From positions 866-64,865 of the forward strand of contig CBFDSV010000005.1 in the NCBI GenBank assembly GCA_965612735.1: DNA of 64,000 nt, read 5' to 3'. Both the position numbers and the translations under genes were made by a program. Origin of the DNA: an uncultured bacterium. Its GTDB lineage: Bacteria > Hydrothermota > UBA3072 > B12-G15. Positions 21,274 through 58,863 of this stretch are shown here, piece after piece (within the stretch, counting starts at the first letter, position 1; each line of letters opens with the position of its first letter). The notes beneath the pieces were generated by a model. The model saw nothing but the letters and a program-made list of their open reading frames with translations. It did not search any database and was not told the DNA's origin.

Positions 21274-22204
21274 AACAAGAGACTTTCTAAAAAAATACGA
21301 GAGTTTCCTCATCACATCCCATAAAAATCCCGACGGAGATGCAATTGGTTCTCAGATAGGGCTTGCCCTTGCCCTGAAAAAAATGGGAAAGGACGTGATT
21401 ATAGTAGATACAGACCCTGTTCCAAAGAGGTTCAGATACTTTGACCAGATTGACCTTGTCCAGAATGAAATAGGGGATTTTGACTATCAGGCCGTGATTG
21501 TGCTTGACAGTTCAAGCCCTGACAGGCTTGGTAGCATATCAGAAAAGATAGACTTCACAAAACCTGTTGCAAACATAGACCACCATATAAGCAATAAGTA
21601 CTTTGGGACAGTAAACCTTGTCCAGCCAGAACGCTCATCCACCTGTGAAATCGTCTATCTTCTATTAAAGGATTTTGTGGAACTTGATAAAGAGATTGCA
21701 ACATACCTCTATCTTGGACTTTTGACTGATACTGGTTCATTCAGATATGCCAATACCCGGGCAGAATCATTGAGGCATGCCTCTGAACTTTTAAGTTACG
21801 GGGTTGATGCAAGTTCTGTTGCTGAAAGGATATGGTTCAGGGATACGCCAGGAAGACTGAAACTTCTCGGGTCTGTGCTTGAAACCATTGAGATATTTGA
21901 TGGTTTCAGCCTGATGTATGTAACAAGGGAGATGATGGAAAGGTACAACACAACAGAGGAAGACACTGAGGAGTTTGCCTCATATGGGCTCACCATAGAC
22001 GGTGTCAGGGCAACTGCATTTGTCAAAGAGAGGGATGGAGAGATAAAGGTATCACTCAGGTCAAAGAAGGGAACAGATGTTGACAGAATTGCTGCAATCT
22101 ATGGTGGTGGTGGTCATAAGAGTGCTGCTGGATTCACTGTTAAGGGGAAAAACTTCTTCTCATTCATTGAGGAATTGAAAAGGGTCATGGAGGAGAATAT
22201 ATGA
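21266..22204 (+). CDS. nrnA: DHH-family phosphoesterase, NrnA-like bifunctional oligoribonuclease / pAp phosphatase.
   Basis: DHH N-domain motifs (HKNPDGDA, DHH) and a DHHA1 C-domain GGGGHKSAAG. Confidence 0.75.
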   Translation: MNKTRDFLKKYESFLITSHKNPDGDAIGSQIGLALALKKMGKDVIIVDTDPVPKRFRYFDQIDLVQNEIGDFDYQAVIVLDSSSPDRLGSISEKIDFTKPVANIDHHISNKYFGTVNLVQPERSSTCEIVYLLLKDFVELDKEIATYLYLGLLTDTGSFRYANTRAESLRHASELLSYGVDASSVAERIWFRDTPGRLKLLGSVLETIEIFDGFSLMYVTREMMERYNTTEEDTEEFASYGLTIDGVRATAFVKERDGEIKVSLRSKKGTDVDRIAAIYGGGGHKSAAGFTVKGKNFFSFIEELKRVMEENI

Positions 22205-23556
22205 GAATTGGAATAATAGGTGGAGGCCCTGCAGGGTACTCATCTGCACTCCTTGCAGGAATTCTGGGGAATCAGGTTGTCCTGTTTGAAGAAGATACAG
22301 TGGGTGGTGTATGCCTGAACAGGGGATGTATCCCTGTAAAGGCACTTATAAAGGTGGCACACGGTTTGAATACAGTAAAAAAGATTGAAACCTCTGGTAT
22401 AAAGGCTGAGGTAACAGGCATAGACTGGGAGAAGGTAAAGAAGACATCCCAGCTTGCTTCACGAAGGCTTGTTGCAGGTGTTCAGAACCTTTTAAAGAAA
22501 AGGAAGGTTGAAGTTATAAATGCCCATGCTGAACTGAAGGATAGTGGAGTTGTCGTGGCAAATGGAAAGGAATACACCTTTGATAAAGTCCTTGTCTCAA
22601 CTGGTTCAAGACCAAGAATACCTCCCTTCAGGGTGGCAAAGAACGTCTGGACAAGTGATGACGCACTCAATGCAAAAGAGATACCTGAATCAATCGGGAT
22701 TATTGGCGGTGGTGTGATTGGTATTGAATTTGCTTATATATTCAGGTCATTTGGCTCTCAGGTTACAATCTATGAGATAATGGACGAGATTCTTCCGGGA
22801 GAAGATAAAGAGATGGCCTCTTCTTTGAGGAAAGAGATGGAGAAGATAGGTGTGAAATTCAAGTTGGGTGTAATGGTTAATGAAATCACAGAAAGAAAAG
22901 GGACATTCACAATAAAATACACAGATGGTGGTAAGGAGTCAGCGGACAAATACAGCAGGGTGCTTGTGGCAATAGGAAGAGAGGTTGTGGCAGATGGTCT
23001 GTCCGATTTAATAGAAATGGAAAATGGATTTATAAAGGTGAATAGAATGATGGAGACCACTATGAAAAACGTCTACGCAGCAGGTGACTGCACGGGTGGT
23101 CAACTCCTTGCACACACAGCCTATCATGAGGGAGAGATTGCTGTATTCAACATGAATGGCAGGAATGAGAAGGTTAATGAAACCTATGTACCCAGGGTTA
23201 TTTATACAAAACCTGAGTTTGCAGCATGTGGAGAAACAGAGGAAAGGCTTAAAGAAAAGGGTGTTGATTATCAGAAGGAGTTCTTCCCATTCACAGGTAA
23301 TGGTAGAGCCATTGCTGAGTCTGAGACCAGGGGTGGTATAAAGATGCTTTTTGACACAAATGGGAAGATACTTGGTGGAGCAATCCTTGGTGGGTATGCT
23401 TCTGAAATGATACATATCATCTGTGTCTCAATGAAAAACGGGGTAACGGCAAGGGAACTCTTCCATACAATATTTGCCCATCCCACCTACTCCGAGACAA
23501 TAAAAGAGGCAGCAGCCCAATTCCTCCACCTCCCCCTCCATGGGGACGGAGGATGA
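22201..23556 (+). CDS. Dihydrolipoyl dehydrogenase-family (class I) pyridine nucleotide-disulfide oxidoreductase.
   Basis: IGGGPAGYSSA FAD fold. Redox disulfide GGVCLNRGCIPVK. C-terminal HAHPTYSE His-Glu dyad. The last 5 codons and the stop lie inside a REP element. Confidence 0.75.
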   Translation: MRIGIIGGGPAGYSSALLAGILGNQVVLFEEDTVGGVCLNRGCIPVKALIKVAHGLNTVKKIETSGIKAEVTGIDWEKVKKTSQLASRRLVAGVQNLLKKRKVEVINAHAELKDSGVVVANGKEYTFDKVLVSTGSRPRIPPFRVAKNVWTSDDALNAKEIPESIGIIGGGVIGIEFAYIFRSFGSQVTIYEIMDEILPGEDKEMASSLRKEMEKIGVKFKLGVMVNEITERKGTFTIKYTDGGKESADKYSRVLVAIGREVVADGLSDLIEMENGFIKVNRMMETTMKNVYAAGDCTGGQLLAHTAYHEGEIAVFNMNGRNEKVNETYVPRVIYTKPEFAACGETEERLKEKGVDYQKEFFPFTGNGRAIAESETRGGIKMLFDTNGKILGGAILGGYASEMIHIICVSMKNGVTARELFHTIFAHPTYSETIKEAAAQFLHLPLHGDGG

Positions 23557-23572
23557 CAATTTGACATTTTTT
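23542..23572 (+). repeat. REP-like element, copy 1 (+ orientation): GGGGACGGAGGATGACAATTTGACATTTTTT.
   Basis: Shares the GGGGACGGAGG-TTGAC-n3-TTTGACA core with copies at 43489, 44462, 53297 and 58832. Preceded by C-rich sequence that can pair with the G-rich half (imperfect hairpin). Confidence 0.7.
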
Positions 23573-23581
23573 CATTCAGGC

Positions 23582-25210
23582 ATGGGGGTATCACTCTTTT
23601 TTCTGATGATCAGCGCTAAATTAAGTGCACAGGAGCAAGGGCGGAAAAGCTCTATCTGTGTAATAACAGATGTTGTGAAAGGAAGCATTGCTGACAGGCT
23701 GGGCCTTAAAACGGGGGATATAATTTTGAGCATAAATGATAAAGAGATACACAGTGATGCTTCCTTTATTAAGGGAATGAAATCTGCTAAGGGTTCAGTG
23801 ATTAAGATTAAAATTTTGAGAAAGGGTAAAGAGATAGTTTTTAAAACTCCTTTTTACGCAGATAAATTGGGCATTTACTTTACTTTTTGTGAAAGAGACA
23901 GACTCCTTTCTCCTGAGGAAATGAAAGAAGACCTTGATACGCTTTTTTCAGCAATTGTAGAGATACATCCCAATCCATATGCCAGTATTTCAAAAGAGGA
24001 ATTTGATAGTTTAAAAAGTAATGTATATAAGTCAATAAATAAATCTATGTCTATCTCTGATTTCTGGAAGATTACAGCACCTGTGGTAGCAAGTATAGGA
24101 GATGGGCATACTTATCTCAACATGCCTGATGGGGAGTGGTTCTATCAATTAACTTCTGATAATAGATTTATATTTCCTATTTTACTACATATTATCCAAG
24201 ATAGTGTACGGGTAAAAAAGAACTTCTCCAGTGCCCCCATAAGAAGTGGTGACTATATAATTTCTATAAACGATGTTCCAATAAGAAAAATTATCAATGA
24301 GTGTATTCCATACATAAGTGGTGAACTTTACCATTTTAAAATAAGCCTTTTAGAAAGAAATTTTCCCCAGTTGCTTTTTTTTATATATGGGTTCAAAAGT
24401 TCCTTTAAGGTAAAAATCAAAAACGTAGATGGAGAAATAAGAGAGTACAACCTGGAGGGTATTGATAAAAAAGAATATGACAAAAAAATCTCGGATGCCT
24501 GCGATACCAATTTCTATTTTGAAGAAATTCCTGAATTAAAAACTGGTATTATCAGATTTAACTTCTTTACAAGGAGAGAGGAGTTTTCTAAATTTTTGAA
24601 AAAGACATTCACAGAAATCAAAAGGGAAAACTATAAATATTTGATAATTGATTTACGTAAAAATGGGGGTGGGAGTTCAGAAATTGCTGAAGATTTGTTA
24701 GATTATTTAACAGCCAAACCTTATCGTTTTTTCGGAGGAGGAAAGGTAAAGATATCAAAATATACCTTAAAATTTGTAAAGGAGCATCTATCCATTAAAA
24801 AACCAGTTGTGGATACTTTTTACACTTTTCAATCAGATTTAAAAATGCCACCTCCAAATCCACTAAGGTTCACTGGTAAGTTATTTGTGCTTGTATCAAA
24901 TTATACATTTTCCACCGCGTCTGGTTTTGCTGCTGTAATAAAAGATTTTCAAATAGGTACCTTGATAGGAGAGGAAACAGGCGGACTTCCAACCTGTTTC
25001 GGTGATAGTTGGTCTGTAATTTTACCGAATTCGCACCTTTCCCTTTATGTATCCTGGAAATACTTTATCCGTCCCAATGGAGATTCACGGTATATTCGCA
25101 AAGGGGTTATTCCTGACATTATTGTTAAAACAACAGAAAAAGATTTGGAGGAAGGAGTAGACCCTGTGATGGAAAAGACAAAAGAAATCATCTTGGAGAG
25201 CCTCAGGTAA
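23582..25210 (+). CDS. PDZ-domain S41 family peptidase (C-terminal processing protease-like), secreted.
   Basis: Signal peptide MGVSLFFLMISAKLSAQ at the in-frame Met 23582 (ORF track starts at 23540 inside the REP). PDZ-like GSIADRLGLKTGDIILSIN. S41 signature LIIDLRKNGGGS. The gene is markedly more AT-rich than its neighbours. Confidence 0.7.
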   Translation: MGVSLFFLMISAKLSAQEQGRKSSICVITDVVKGSIADRLGLKTGDIILSINDKEIHSDASFIKGMKSAKGSVIKIKILRKGKEIVFKTPFYADKLGIYFTFCERDRLLSPEEMKEDLDTLFSAIVEIHPNPYASISKEEFDSLKSNVYKSINKSMSISDFWKITAPVVASIGDGHTYLNMPDGEWFYQLTSDNRFIFPILLHIIQDSVRVKKNFSSAPIRSGDYIISINDVPIRKIINECIPYISGELYHFKISLLERNFPQLLFFIYGFKSSFKVKIKNVDGEIREYNLEGIDKKEYDKKISDACDTNFYFEEIPELKTGIIRFNFFTRREEFSKFLKKTFTEIKRENYKYLIIDLRKNGGGSSEIAEDLLDYLTAKPYRFFGGGKVKISKYTLKFVKEHLSIKKPVVDTFYTFQSDLKMPPPNPLRFTGKLFVLVSNYTFSTASGFAAVIKDFQIGTLIGEETGGLPTCFGDSWSVILPNSHLSLYVSWKYFIRPNGDSRYIRKGVIPDIIVKTTEKDLEEGVDPVMEKTKEIILESLR

Positions 25211-25216
25211 CTGAGC

Positions 25217-25234
25217 TTGACTTTTTGACACTTT
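25217..25234 (+). repeat. Partial REP-like element (TTGACTTTTTGACACTTT tail only).
   Basis: Matches the TTGAC-direct-repeat half of the REP family but lacks the GC-rich hairpin half. Lies between convergent genes. Confidence 0.4.
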
Positions 25235-42928: not shown

Positions 42929-43474
42929 TTACTCCTCCTTGAATGGATGGAAGTTCACAAAGTCTGCAAAGTGAACAATCCAGCCCTCGGGAATCCTCTT
43001 GACAAAATCACCCTCCTTTGAGTGTGCAGCAATTATGTGGACAACCTGGTATGGAAGACCATTCTTGTATGCAAGTGCAGCACCTGAAACAGGATGCCTT
43101 ATTCTCTTTCCGAATTCACCAACGTGGATTGTATCCTCTTTTACATACTCAAGGAACTTCCCTACATCATGCAGGATTGCACCAGAAACAAGTATATCCC
43201 TCTCCATGGGTAGAGCATCCCCATATTCCTCTTTTAATGTATCAAAGATGGCAATAGCAGTCCTTGTTACTGCCCTTGTATGTTTGATAAGGGAGATTTT
43301 TGTTCCCTTGATGAGCATGGTGAACGGTATCTCCTCAAGGTCCTCCTCCTTCCAACCCCCAATCTGGATGGCCTCCTCAATGGTCTTAATGGTCTTTTCC
43401 TTCAGTTCACTATCCTTAATCTCCTCAACCTCAGGAAAGATTTTTCTTATATCCATTTCCCCTCCTTCTTTCAC
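42929..43474 (-). CDS. HD-domain phosphohydrolase.
   Basis: H...HD motif (GAILHDVGK) and a downstream His cluster (HIIAAHSKEGD). 181 aa. Confidence 0.6.
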   Translation of the reverse strand: MKEGGEMDIRKIFPEVEEIKDSELKEKTIKTIEEAIQIGGWKEEDLEEIPFTMLIKGTKISLIKHTRAVTRTAIAIFDTLKEEYGDALPMERDILVSGAILHDVGKFLEYVKEDTIHVGEFGKRIRHPVSGAALAYKNGLPYQVVHIIAAHSKEGDFVKRIPEGWIVHFADFVNFHPFKEE

Positions 43475-44457
43475 CCCCTCCCCTTTCTGGGGACGGAGGT
43501 TGACTTTTTGACATTTTTATCTCCTCGTTCCTTCTCCTTTTTAATACGTTCCTTTGCCCTTTTATAAATCTTTCCAAGTGATGAATATCTTAGATTTTTA
43601 AAGATGGGCATCCTGATAATATCACTATACTTCAATCCTGCTTCATCCCTCAACCTCACCAGCAATTCACCACGAAGCCTTTTTCCATTTCTTTTTGAGG
43701 TATCAATCTTTTCAACCTTTACACCAGACTCTTTTTCAAAATCCCTGATAACTTCGGAAGGTTCAACAAATGGATAATCCTTCTTTCTTCTCCGAAGATT
43801 TTCCCCGGTAGATTTTCTCCTGTTAAAACGTCTTTCAATCTCCCCAACAAACTCAGTATTCCCAATCACGTCTCCAAACCGTGTCCTCTTCACATCTGGA
43901 GATTTGTCCCTTGAAATCCAATCCATGAAAAGTGCGTCAAGTTTATCCTTCCCTCCAATGATACTTTCAACAAATTCATGGTCCACAAGGCCAGATGTTT
44001 TTTCAGAAAAGTAATCTGATATACTTGACCATATGTATTCGTATGGATTCTTAACAATTCCTGCACGAACAGGATTCAGTAAAACATATGTGAGTACCAT
44101 AATCATGTAGGGCTCATCCTGAATCAAAGTGGATTTGTACCTATCTTGAAAAACATACCCTTTCCCACCCTCAAGATATCTATAATATTTTCCAAAAGTA
44201 CCATTCAGATACCTCATAAAATCACCAAGCCTTCCTGAGGAATTCTGCAAAACAAGATGATAATGATTATCCATAAGGCAATATGCAAATATTTTTATAC
44301 GGTATTTATTCTTTGCCTCTGCCAACAGGTTGAGGAAATAGTTTTTGAGTTCTGTAGACAGAAAAACAGGTTCTCCCCTTAATCCACGGGAGACAATATG
44401 ATGATATGCACCTTCATAAGTTACACGGGCATGCCTCATAGAGAGGATTATAAACAA
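43471..44457 (-). CDS. REP-associated tyrosine transposase (RAYT; IS200/IS605-like Y1 HUH transposase) with a long basic C-terminal extension. Probable true start is the ATG at 44439.
   Basis: HHIVSRG and the HUH motif (MDNHYHLVL). Catalytic-Tyr region (FQDRYKS). Flanked by inverted REP copies. The C-terminal roughly 150 aa is K/R-rich with a possible DnaA-domain-IV-like HTH. Confidence 0.75.
   Translation of the reverse strand: MFIILSMRHARVTYEGAYHHIVSRGLRGEPVFLSTELKNYFLNLLAEAKNKYRIKIFAYCLMDNHYHLVLQNSSGRLGDFMRYLNGTFGKYYRYLEGGKGYVFQDRYKSTLIQDEPYMIMVLTYVLLNPVRAGIVKNPYEYIWSSISDYFSEKTSGLVDHEFVESIIGGKDKLDALFMDWISRDKSPDVKRTRFGDVIGNTEFVGEIERRFNRRKSTGENLRRRKKDYPFVEPSEVIRDFEKESGVKVEKIDTSKRNGKRLRGELLVRLRDEAGLKYSDIIRMPIFKNLRYSSLGKIYKRAKERIKKEKERGDKNVKKSTSVPRKGRG
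43489..43518 (+). repeat. REP-like element, copy 3 (+): GGGGACGGAGGTTGACTTTTTGACATTTTT. It forms the left inverted repeat flanking the RAYT gene.
   Basis: Same core as copy 1. Preceded by CCTCCCC, which can pair with GGGG(AC)GGAGG. The annotated 3' end of the RAYT ORF reads through it (…PRKGRG*). Confidence 0.7.
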
Positions 44458-44461
44458 ATTT

Positions 44462-44495
44462 GAGAAACTGTCAAATTGTCCACCTCCGTCCCCGG
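44462..44495 (-). repeat. REP-like element, copy 4 (- orientation), 5 nt upstream of the RAYT start. It is the right inverted repeat.
   Basis: Reverse complement reads CCGGGGACGGAGGTGGACAATTTGACAGTTTCTC. Preceded (on that strand) by CCCCCCC ATTT, giving a hairpin. Confidence 0.7.
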
Positions 44496-44506
44496 AAATG
44501 GGGGGG

Positions 44507-53177: not shown

Positions 53178-53296
53178 TTATAAGGGATTTTTTTATTCTG
53201 TCAATATAGGGGACTAAACATCCAATCTATCCATTTTATTGGGGATCAGCCATAAACCTTCACCAGTTATCCAACTGAAAATAAAAATGTTAAAGA

Positions 53297-53326
53297 AAAT
53301 GTCAAATTGTCAACCTCCGTCCCTGG
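53297..53326 (-). repeat. REP-like element, copy 5 (-). The reverse complement is CCAGGGACGGAGGTTGACAATTTGACATTTT.
   Basis: Supplies the last 4 codons and stop (RDGG*) of the 53310..53729 ORF. Points toward the tetR-lol operon. Confidence 0.7.
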
Positions 53327-53729
53327 AGAGGTGTTCCTGGTATTCGGGGAGATTGACAACCGCAGAATTTAATTCCTGGTCATCAAGGTTTGCATATTTA
53401 TCAATAACATAATCGGCAACAGAAAGAATATCATCAGGAAGTTCAACATTCCTATCCTTAACCAGCCTGAAGAACCCTCTTACAGGATTACCCTCTTCAT
53501 CCTTTATTTCTATCTTTTCAACACCATCAATTGACATCAGGAATGGTGGAAACCCTTCTATATAGAACCCATAAGGGGTTATCACATAATCAAAATCCGT
53601 GCAGGGCTTCCCGTGCCTTCTCCTGCATTCTGTATCAATCAGGAAAAGTAGCCTGCTCAACCTGAAAGGATGCTGGTCAGGCACCTTTTTCAATAAATAT
53701 AAAACAAGCATTTCATTAATCCTTTTCAT
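53310..53729 (-). CDS. Hypothetical protein (139 aa), possibly Panacea/DUF4065 (SocA-antitoxin-like) domain.
   Basis: No confident motif. Weak resemblance to DUF4065 (LSRLLFLID...G.P.T...YV....GFY). Its C-terminal residues are encoded by the REP element. Confidence 0.4.
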   Translation of the reverse strand: MKRINEMLVLYLLKKVPDQHPFRLSRLLFLIDTECRRRHGKPCTDFDYVITPYGFYIEGFPPFLMSIDGVEKIEIKDEEGNPVRGFFRLVKDRNVELPDDILSVADYVIDKYANLDDQELNSAVVNLPEYQEHLSRDGG

Positions 53730-56945: not shown

Positions 56946-58757
56946 TCAATCCACCGTTATTGTTTTGGATATGTTCTTGGGGAAATCAGGGTCAATCCCC
57001 CTGTTCACCCCAAGGTGGTATGCAAGCAACTGGAAGAATATGGTTGCTGATATGGGCACAAGGTAAGGATTGTCTGTGGGCAGAGGGATGAATATATCAC
57101 TCACCTCTTCAAGTTCCGGGTCTTCTGGAGCAACTGTGATAACCTTTCCCAGTCTGGTTTTCACCTCCTGGATGTGGGACAGGACAAAGAACTTGTCCTC
57201 TATGGTGGATACAAAGAACACAGGGTAATCCTGATGCACAATAGAGAGAGGACCATGTTTAAACTCACCAGAGTACATACCCTCTGCATGTACATATACA
57301 ACCTCTTTCACCTTCAAAGCACCTTCCAGTGCAGCAGGATAGGTGAGACCATAACCAAGTATATAAAACTCATTGAACCTATCCACTGCCTGTATAACCT
57401 TATCAACATACTCCTCTGATATTTCAATACTCTTCTCAAGTATCCATGGTATCTTTTCAAAGGGGATGGTTGGAACATTCAGCATCTTCTTCTTTGCACT
57501 CAATACTGCCATATTCAGGAAGAGTATTGCCTGATTTACAAAGGTCTTTGTTGCAGGAACAGAGATCTCAATATCAGATGCAATGGGAAGCACAAGGTCG
57601 CTCAAAAGTGCAATTGTGGAGCCAAGATTATTCACAACAGAAATTATCTTCCCTTCGGTCTTCTCCCTGAATACATCGCATACGTTTTTCACATCCTTTG
57701 TCTCTCCGCTCTGGGAAACAGCAATAAGAAGATCATCGTCCTCAAGAACAGGAGCATAGAATTCCCTGAAATCAGAGGCAAAAGAGATATTGAGGAGTTT
57801 ACCTGAGATTCTTGAAAAATAATAAGTACCAAGAAGCGCTGAATGATAAGAAGTTCCAGCACCTGTTATAAATACACGCGGAGAGGCATTAATTAAATCT
57901 ACACCTTCGTCATAAACCACATTCCCGCTCATAAGCCCAATAAGACTATGAGCCTTCTGGGGCGATTCGTATATCTCCTTCAACATAAAATGGGGGAATG
58001 AACCCTTCTCTACAGTACCTATATCCAGGTCTATCTCCTCAAGGTTCTTTTCAATAATCTCACCTGTATCAAGGTCTCTTACAATAAAATAATCAGTGCC
58101 AAATTCTACAAACTCTCCATCTGAAAGCGTGAGTATCTGTTTTGTATGGTCAAGGATTGAGGCAAGGTCACTTGAAGCACAGTAATACCCATCTCCCTTT
58201 CCAAGAAAGAGAGAAGAACCCTTCTTCACCACAAACATCCTGTCCTCATCTCTCTTTGTTATAATGCATGCAAAATCACCCTCAAGGTCCTTTGTTCCCT
58301 GAACAATAGCCTGAACCATATCACCGGTAATCTTATAGTAATCCTCTATTACATGGAGGATAACCTCTCCATCATTCTCACCCATAAGTTTATGACCTGA
58401 ACTCTCCAGCCTCATTCTCAGGGCAGGTGTATTTATGATATTCCCATTATGTGCGCCAAGGAATTCACCAGTGCAGTCCTTATGGGGTTGTGCATTCCTC
58501 ACAGATGGAACACCAAAAGTAGCCCACCTCAACTGGATAATTCCCTTTTTACCTGAAAGTTCTGCGAACCTGTGTTTTTCTGCAACCTCTTCTATCTTGC
58601 CAACATCCTTCCTTATCTCCACATTACCTGACCCATCAACAACACCTACACCTGAGGTGTCATAACCCCTGTAGGAGAGCCTCTTACCTGCCTTAAAAAG
58701 GACCTCTCCCATCTCCCTTCTCTCATCGCTGTAGATAATGCCGAAAAATCCACACAT
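56946..58757 (-). CDS. glmS: Glutamine--fructose-6-phosphate aminotransferase (isomerizing).
   Basis: N-terminal MCGFFGI (Cys1 amidotransferase). Two SIS domains. C-terminal ...TVD. 603 aa. Confidence 0.95.
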   Translation of the reverse strand: MCGFFGIIYSDERREMGEVLFKAGKRLSYRGYDTSGVGVVDGSGNVEIRKDVGKIEEVAEKHRFAELSGKKGIIQLRWATFGVPSVRNAQPHKDCTGEFLGAHNGNIINTPALRMRLESSGHKLMGENDGEVILHVIEDYYKITGDMVQAIVQGTKDLEGDFACIITKRDEDRMFVVKKGSSLFLGKGDGYYCASSDLASILDHTKQILTLSDGEFVEFGTDYFIVRDLDTGEIIEKNLEEIDLDIGTVEKGSFPHFMLKEIYESPQKAHSLIGLMSGNVVYDEGVDLINASPRVFITGAGTSYHSALLGTYYFSRISGKLLNISFASDFREFYAPVLEDDDLLIAVSQSGETKDVKNVCDVFREKTEGKIISVVNNLGSTIALLSDLVLPIASDIEISVPATKTFVNQAILFLNMAVLSAKKKMLNVPTIPFEKIPWILEKSIEISEEYVDKVIQAVDRFNEFYILGYGLTYPAALEGALKVKEVVYVHAEGMYSGEFKHGPLSIVHQDYPVFFVSTIEDKFFVLSHIQEVKTRLGKVITVAPEDPELEEVSDIFIPLPTDNPYLVPISATIFFQLLAYHLGVNRGIDPDFPKNISKTITVD

Positions 58758-58831: not shown

Positions 58832-58863
58832 AAAAGTGTCAAAAAGTCAACCTCCGACCCCGG
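58832..58863 (-). repeat. REP-like element, copy 6 (-). The reverse complement is CCGGGGGTCGGAGGTTGACTTTTTGACACTTTT.
   Basis: Same family. Lies about 75 nt upstream of glmS in the same orientation. Confidence 0.65.

Follow-up and report, generated by a model that had tools for sequence, protein, structure and literature searches.

What kind of element is a Y1/HUH transposase gene that lies between two inverted copies of a short repeat, with further copies of the same repeat scattered through the DNA around it? The earlier note on this 64-kb stretch (hereafter the window) read the locus as a canonical REP-RAYT module belonging to a genome-wide REP family. We consider it probable that the locus is instead a TIRtron: a gene for a TIR-associated tyrosine transposase (TIRYT) between two terminal inverted repeats (TIRs) of ~29 nt, with solo copies of the repeat nearby. 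TIRYTs and TIRtrons were named by Di Nocera, De Gregorio & Rocco (2013, BMC Genomics 14:522; PMC3733652) and have been equated with TnpAY1 subclass 2.1 by Quentin, Siguier, Chandler & Fichant (2018, BMC Genomics 19:475; PMC6006769); the kind was already described in 2013, and the WOR-3 locus adds a member to it.

The gene and its protein

The open reading frame spans 43471..44457 on the minus strand, and its start is probably the ATG at 44439, because this agrees with both the gene call on L001 and the N-termini of homologues. This gives a TIRYT gene at 43471..44439 (-), encoding 322 aa and a stop, for which Pfam, the L001 call, homologues and an AlphaFold model (pLDDT 84.5) all provide evidence; of the 328-aa Y1 ORF first proposed, the frame and its Y1 hallmarks stand, whilst the length is likely 322 aa. 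The match to Pfam Y1_Tnp (E 1e-9; 38.9 bits against a cut-off of 23) bears out the family assignment, and the WOR-3 names found among relatives agree with the FCB-type host that had been suggested. Full-length homologues are ~300 aa long and 44-97% identical to the TIRYT protein.

An N-terminal HUH/Y1 nuclease domain occupies approximately residues 1-145 and is followed by a middle region. The HUH motif reads H-Y-H (H59-Y60-H61; codons 44257..44265, minus strand), and the putative catalytic tyrosine, Tyr118 (codon 44086..44088, minus strand), lies in a Y-x3-NP motif that reads Y118-VLL-N122-P123. Across an alignment of 26 homologues (A1), H59, H61, Y118 and N122 are invariant and P123 is nearly so; the same holds for the serine motif W137-S138-S139, with both serines invariant and the tryptophan nearly invariant. 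Tyr118 aligns with the catalytic Y115 of E. coli TnpAREP (hmmsearch alignment), whose structure, PDB 4er8, is the top sequence match (E 1e-3) as well as the best PDB match in a Foldseek search with the TIRYT model (E 1e-6, TM 0.71). We infer from these sequence features that the protein is a single-strand DNA nuclease-ligase; the literature searched held no biochemical data on any TIRYT.

The HUH/Y1 fold, and presumably the single-strand chemistry, are shared with the TnpA proteins of IS200/IS605 elements, and the locus could be taken for an ordinary insertion sequence of this group, moved by TnpA peel-and-paste on subterminal hairpins. Indeed, besides the Pfam Y1_Tnp match, the IS608 and ISDra2 TnpA structures are among the Foldseek matches. 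However, with the NCBIfam model transpos_IS200 the protein reaches 13.4 bits where the cut-off is 55, and the tyrosine motif is Y-x3-NP instead of the Y-x3-Q of IS200/IS605, a criterion given in PMC6006769. Whereas IS200/IS605 elements are multicopy, often carry tnpB, and have subterminal hairpins on one strand and no TIRs, the window holds one TIRYT copy, the gene calls on L001 place no tnpB gene next to it, and its ends are inverted repeats lacking significant hairpins. Score, tyrosine motif, inverted ends, missing tnpB and single copy all contradict an IS200/IS605 insertion, which we regard as extremely improbable.

The kinship with E. coli TnpAREP, the nearest solved structure and sequence, speaks for a canonical REP-RAYT system, in which a single-copy domesticated RAYT mobilises high-copy REPs or REPINs via a hairpin and a 5' tetranucleotide on single-stranded DNA; REP_Tyr_transpos (NF047646) is likewise the top NCBIfam model. 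Yet this match reaches 70.6 bits where the equivalog cut-off is 80. The E. coli RAYT (YafM) is alike in its N-terminal domain, catalytic residues, inverted cognate repeats and dispersed copies, but it has 165 aa and no helix-turn-helix domain, whereas the TIRYT protein is about double that length and carries a C-terminal extension of ~170 residues, conserved in all 26 homologues of A1, that includes a predicted helix-turn-helix domain. IMG labels such genes 'REP element-mobilizing transposase RayT'; this is likely a mis-annotation, the genes being without REPs.

The class-2 criteria of PMC6006769 are a Y-x3-NP motif, an HuH motif in which u is L, V, I, F, Y or M, and a downstream serine motif, and the TIRYT protein has Y-x3-NP, u = Y and WSS. 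Subclass 2.1, the second-largest of the Y1 superfamily (~15% of surveyed strains), has a low copy number and lacks REPs beside the gene (PMC6006769); the present locus is alike in its low copy number and in having no REPs beside a gene whose product is among the longest of the family. We conclude that the TIRYT described here is, judging by its motifs, a RAYT-like Y1/HUH protein of TnpAY1 class 2, most likely of subclass 2.1.

Subclass 2.1 proteins have a C-terminal helix-turn-helix domain related to Bac_DnaA_C, HTH_23 or HTH_28 (PMC6006769). In our protein, a helix-turn-helix domain is predicted at approximately residues 226-300 (coding region 43540..43764, minus strand), and in the predicted structure, on which the assignment rests, it has the fold of DnaA domain IV. 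This likeness is one of fold comparison and not of Pfam profile: Pfam searches of 26 family members gave no DnaA-type signal in the domain, a profile built from the C-terminal alignment found no DnaA match in the PDB, and a comparison with E. coli DnaA domain IV by hhalign was negative (probability 0.07%). Nor was sequence homology to the TIRYT C-terminus detected for DnaA domain IV as it sits on DnaA boxes (PDB 1j1v, 3pvp), and the targets differ, TTWTNCACA for DnaA against 8-mers such as TTGACAAT here. The complement of one copy, TTGTCCACC, fits TTATCCACA at 7/9 positions; since the majority variant fits less well, we set this resemblance aside as evidence.

The flanking repeats and their dispersed copies

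The repeat measures 29 nt and consists of an outer box, GGGGACGG plus 3 nt, and two tandem 8-mers. The upstream TIR (44465..44493, minus strand) has GGGGACGGAGG as its outer box, the 8-mers TGGACAAT and TTGACAGT, then TT; the downstream TIR (43489..43517, plus strand) reads GGGGACGGAGG, TTGACTTT, TTGACATT and TT. That the flanking copies are inverted and not direct, as originally reported, was confirmed (43489..43517(+) and 44493..44465(-)). At the upstream TIR, imperfect complementarity runs further outward, to 44506, and between the arms 43476-43517 and 44465-44506 it amounts to 83%. The downstream TIR overlaps the final ~15 codons of the ORF, which form an extension absent from most homologues, and most members of A1 stop ~20 residues earlier than the window protein.

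PMC3733652 describes TIRtrons in similar terms: a RAYT-like HUH/Y1 gene has long inverted ends in place of REPs, one of the TIRs overlaps its 3' end, and the TIRs form families of moderate abundance whose members also occur as singles, dimers and groups. The motif reported there for many, though not all, TIRYTs, GGGGWSAS, agrees with the start of the window TIR, GGGGACGG, at 7/8 positions (G for A at position 7), and a bin1351 copy, GGGGACAG, fits it exactly.

Each element had been described as a GC-rich imperfect hairpin. Pairing of the CCCC...GGGG type is possible only at the copies beginning at 23542, 43489 and 44493, the C-run being missing from copies 53324 and 58861 and from those in other genomes. 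When eight single copies from the window and other genomes were folded as single-stranded DNA, as the earlier note had suggested for the element, they did no better than shuffled sequences (z +0.5 to -1.8), and the REP-type hairpin idea was dropped. The repeats carry no GTAG or CGTC tag. An Rfam scan of the whole window gave zero matches; therefore, no known RNA family explains the element.

The repeat is far too frequent in the window to be there by chance: a 16-mer pattern matches five times against 0.05 expected, a count reached in 0 of 100 shuffles, and the pattern TTGACWWTTTGACA matches six times against 0.33. Besides the flanking pair, four further copies had been claimed, and all four were found, three full and one partial, so that the 64 kb contain five full copies and one partial; each dispersed copy is a singleton. 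The first solo TIR lies at 23542..23570 (+), its outer box forming the last codons and stop (GDGG*) of a Pyr_redox gene (22201..23556) and its inner end facing an S41 peptidase gene with a likely start at 23582. The second, at 53296..53324 (-) (copy 53324), overlaps the stop codon of a SocA/Panacea-like gene (53310..53729) and faces a TetR-family gene (start 53147 as called on L001), beyond which lipoprotein, ABC-transporter and FtsX-permease genes follow on the same strand; this copy is also found in the 98% identical L021. The third, a GGGGTCGGAGG variant at 58833..58861 (-) (copy 58861), lies ~75 nt upstream of a GlmS-like gene (56946..58757), again with its inner end toward the gene. The partial copy, at 25217..25234 (+), sits between convergent genes and retains the inner 8-mers only (TTGACTTT TTGACACT TT), without the outer box. 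A search of the window for B-type TIRs, whose repeats are ATAAATCT and which occur in the AUK059 MAG and L087, gave none.

Three independent upstream ORFs end on a TGA inside the first TTGAC. This shared stop is statistically unremarkable, because two of the three frames meet a stop inside the element.

The layout of a gene between inverted repeats recurs at ~69 of 77 homologous metagenome loci. It is also seen in bin65, whose protein is 50% identical and whose TIR is nearly identical, in L016, where a perfect 30-nt TIR surrounds the gene, and in L019, which is likewise flanked. The whole family keeps the outer box (GGG(G)ACGG plus 3 nt), whilst the inner 8-mers vary by lineage yet stay a direct repeat of ~8 bp: tandem units with at least 5/7 matches were found in 52 of 57 TIRs, 47 of them with a period of 8, against 5.6 in shuffles.

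These data bear directly on the REP-RAYT reading. In its favour are the inverted flanking copies, as in REPtrons, the five full copies and one partial within 64 kb, and the inverted TIR dimers of bin1351, which fold REPIN-like into a 25-bp stem (z -7.6). On the other hand, the E. coli RAYT acts on REPs that form hairpins, bear a GTAG tag and number in the hundreds, whereas the TIRYT repeat lacks a hairpin of its own and a tag, most copies have no C-run partner, the element is a TIR that contains a direct repeat, and the dispersed copies in the window are singletons and not inverted pairs. The proposed genome-wide REP family also finds no support among relatives, because one complete WOR-3 chromosome has a single strict match to the motif and another has two. 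A relaxed solo-copy detector was too noisy to be of use (43 detections against 29 in shuffled sequence); counted by eye, and only where the outer box is complete and the repeat unmistakable, there are ~10-12 solo copies per 530 kb. With its sub-threshold score, doubled protein length, and absence of palindromic REPs and tag, we judge a canonical REP-RAYT system improbable.

Putative promoter, neighbouring genes and possible rearrangement

A promoter-like site at 44447..44474 (-) matches the consensus at 12/12 positions: the -35 box, TTGACA (44474..44469), lies within the upstream TIR, and after a 16-nt spacer the -10 box, TATAAT (44452..44447), ends 7 nt ahead of the ATG, an arrangement that predicts a leaderless or near-leaderless TIRYT mRNA. 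Of 57 homologous loci, 34 have 33-36 nt between the end of the outer box and the ATG; the perfect -35 box of the window is the second 8-mer, and at most other loci it is the first 8-mer that stands at that position.

Could the protein, then, be a domesticated regulator which has lost DNA movement, with the 29-nt element as an operator/promoter cassette for a small regulon including its own gene? The perfect sigma-70-type promoter in the upstream TIR would fit, as would the three full solo copies, all of which direct their promoter-bearing inner end toward a gene start (S41 peptidase, TetR-family and GlmS). So would the low copy number in complete genomes, the 24-29-nt motif that recurs identically in MAGs otherwise without detectable nucleotide similarity to the window, and the single locus kept by the gene in close relatives: it lies beside an HD gene, in the same place in all relatives with 88-98% protein identity. 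However, the residues of the catalytic core, HUH and Tyr among them, do not vary across the family, which argues that nuclease/ligase activity is retained. Moreover, the downstream TIR aims its promoter antisense into the TIRYT gene, the partial copy sits between convergent genes, most solo copies at other loci have no ORF after them on the same strand, and 8-mers of other than the TTGAC type cannot serve their lineages as a -35 box. Dimers, a chimeric element of two TIR types and breaks in synteny point, in addition, to DNA rearrangement. We find a mainly regulatory role unlikely.

Synteny with relatives of ~92% identity breaks at or beside three copies, 23542 and 58861, which are solo, and 44493, which flanks the gene. 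In the AUK059 MAG (92% nucleotide identity), it stops at the inner edge of copy 23542, and in AUK059 contig L010 homology to the window is confined to one side of its 58861-type copy. The same MAG carries the chimeric element, of ~100 nt, which joins the ends of two TIR types. Furthermore, two independent truncated copies (25217 and that of L023/L024) retain the 8-mers only and break at the junction between outer box and 8-mers. Ordinary homologous recombination could also be the source of the synteny breaks.

As for movement of the whole unit, relatives of the HD gene at 69-83% identity have neither TIRYT nor TIR, but no clean empty site was found among them; their upstream neighbours also differ from each other, so that a precise insertion boundary is undefinable. 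Given the fixed place beside the HD gene and the lack of a clean empty site, we treat whole-unit transposition as hypothetical. TIRYT activity appears to be low: each genome has only a few copies, and these are seen chiefly as solo ends, as dimers and at rearrangement breakpoints. Carriage by phages or plasmids was considered and rejected: the motif is absent from the viral contigs searched, and plasmid records hold distant homologues only (at most 38% identity).

How the ends may be read

If the locus is a TIRtron, as we favour, which part of the protein reads which part of the repeat? Seeing no likeness between GGGGWSAS and a DnaA box, the authors of PMC6006769 doubted that the TIR is read by the C-terminal domain. 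We posit that the predicted target of this domain is likely not GGGGWSAS but the adjacent tandem 8-mers. Across 55 proteins, divergence of the 8-mers tracks the C-terminal domain (beta 0.34; N-terminal domain, -0.08; permutation p 0.012) and divergence of the outer box tracks the HUH domain (0.57 against -0.08; p 0.0005), in a pairwise-distance regression whose pairs are non-independent and whose result shared phylogeny could inflate. TTGAC-type lineages differ from the others at helix positions 285, 290 and 294.

A mechanism can be sketched on this basis. The C-terminal helix-turn-helix domain would bind the tandem 8-mers as double-stranded DNA, which would give each lineage its specificity, and this binding would bring the HUH domain to the outer box, the conserved part of the repeat; Tyr118 would then cut and rejoin one strand, possibly at the junction of outer box and 8-mers. 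Two close inverted copies may pair on single-stranded DNA to form a long, REPIN-like hairpin. In TTGAC-type lineages, the 8-mers would double as a -35 box, with transcription starting at the ATG or beside it; by binding there, the protein may allow the TIRYT gene to regulate itself, and solo copies could serve adjacent host genes as portable promoters.

We therefore put forward, tentatively and with some reservation, the possibility that TIRYTs are a distinct HUH type with a two-part reading of their ends, in which the 8-mers would be read on double-stranded DNA by the helix-turn-helix domain and the GGGGACGG box by the Y1 domain, with a cut at the junction, and in which the ends would be both leaderless-type promoters wired to host genes and recurrent breakpoints. 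As far as the available portion of PMC3733652 extends, it does not name WOR-3 among the hosts and does not mention a two-part TIR, a link to a leaderless-type promoter or domain-specific co-variation. If true, this would be a single-strand nuclease system of swappable specificity, unlike both IS200/IS605 and REP-RAYT. The present locus and ~80 related ones turn it into a concrete model open to testing, with DNA words for each domain, a candidate place of cleavage and a reason for the promoter in the ends. For the uncultivated WOR-3 bacteria themselves, the solo repeats are candidate portable promoters and candidate hot spots of rearrangement.

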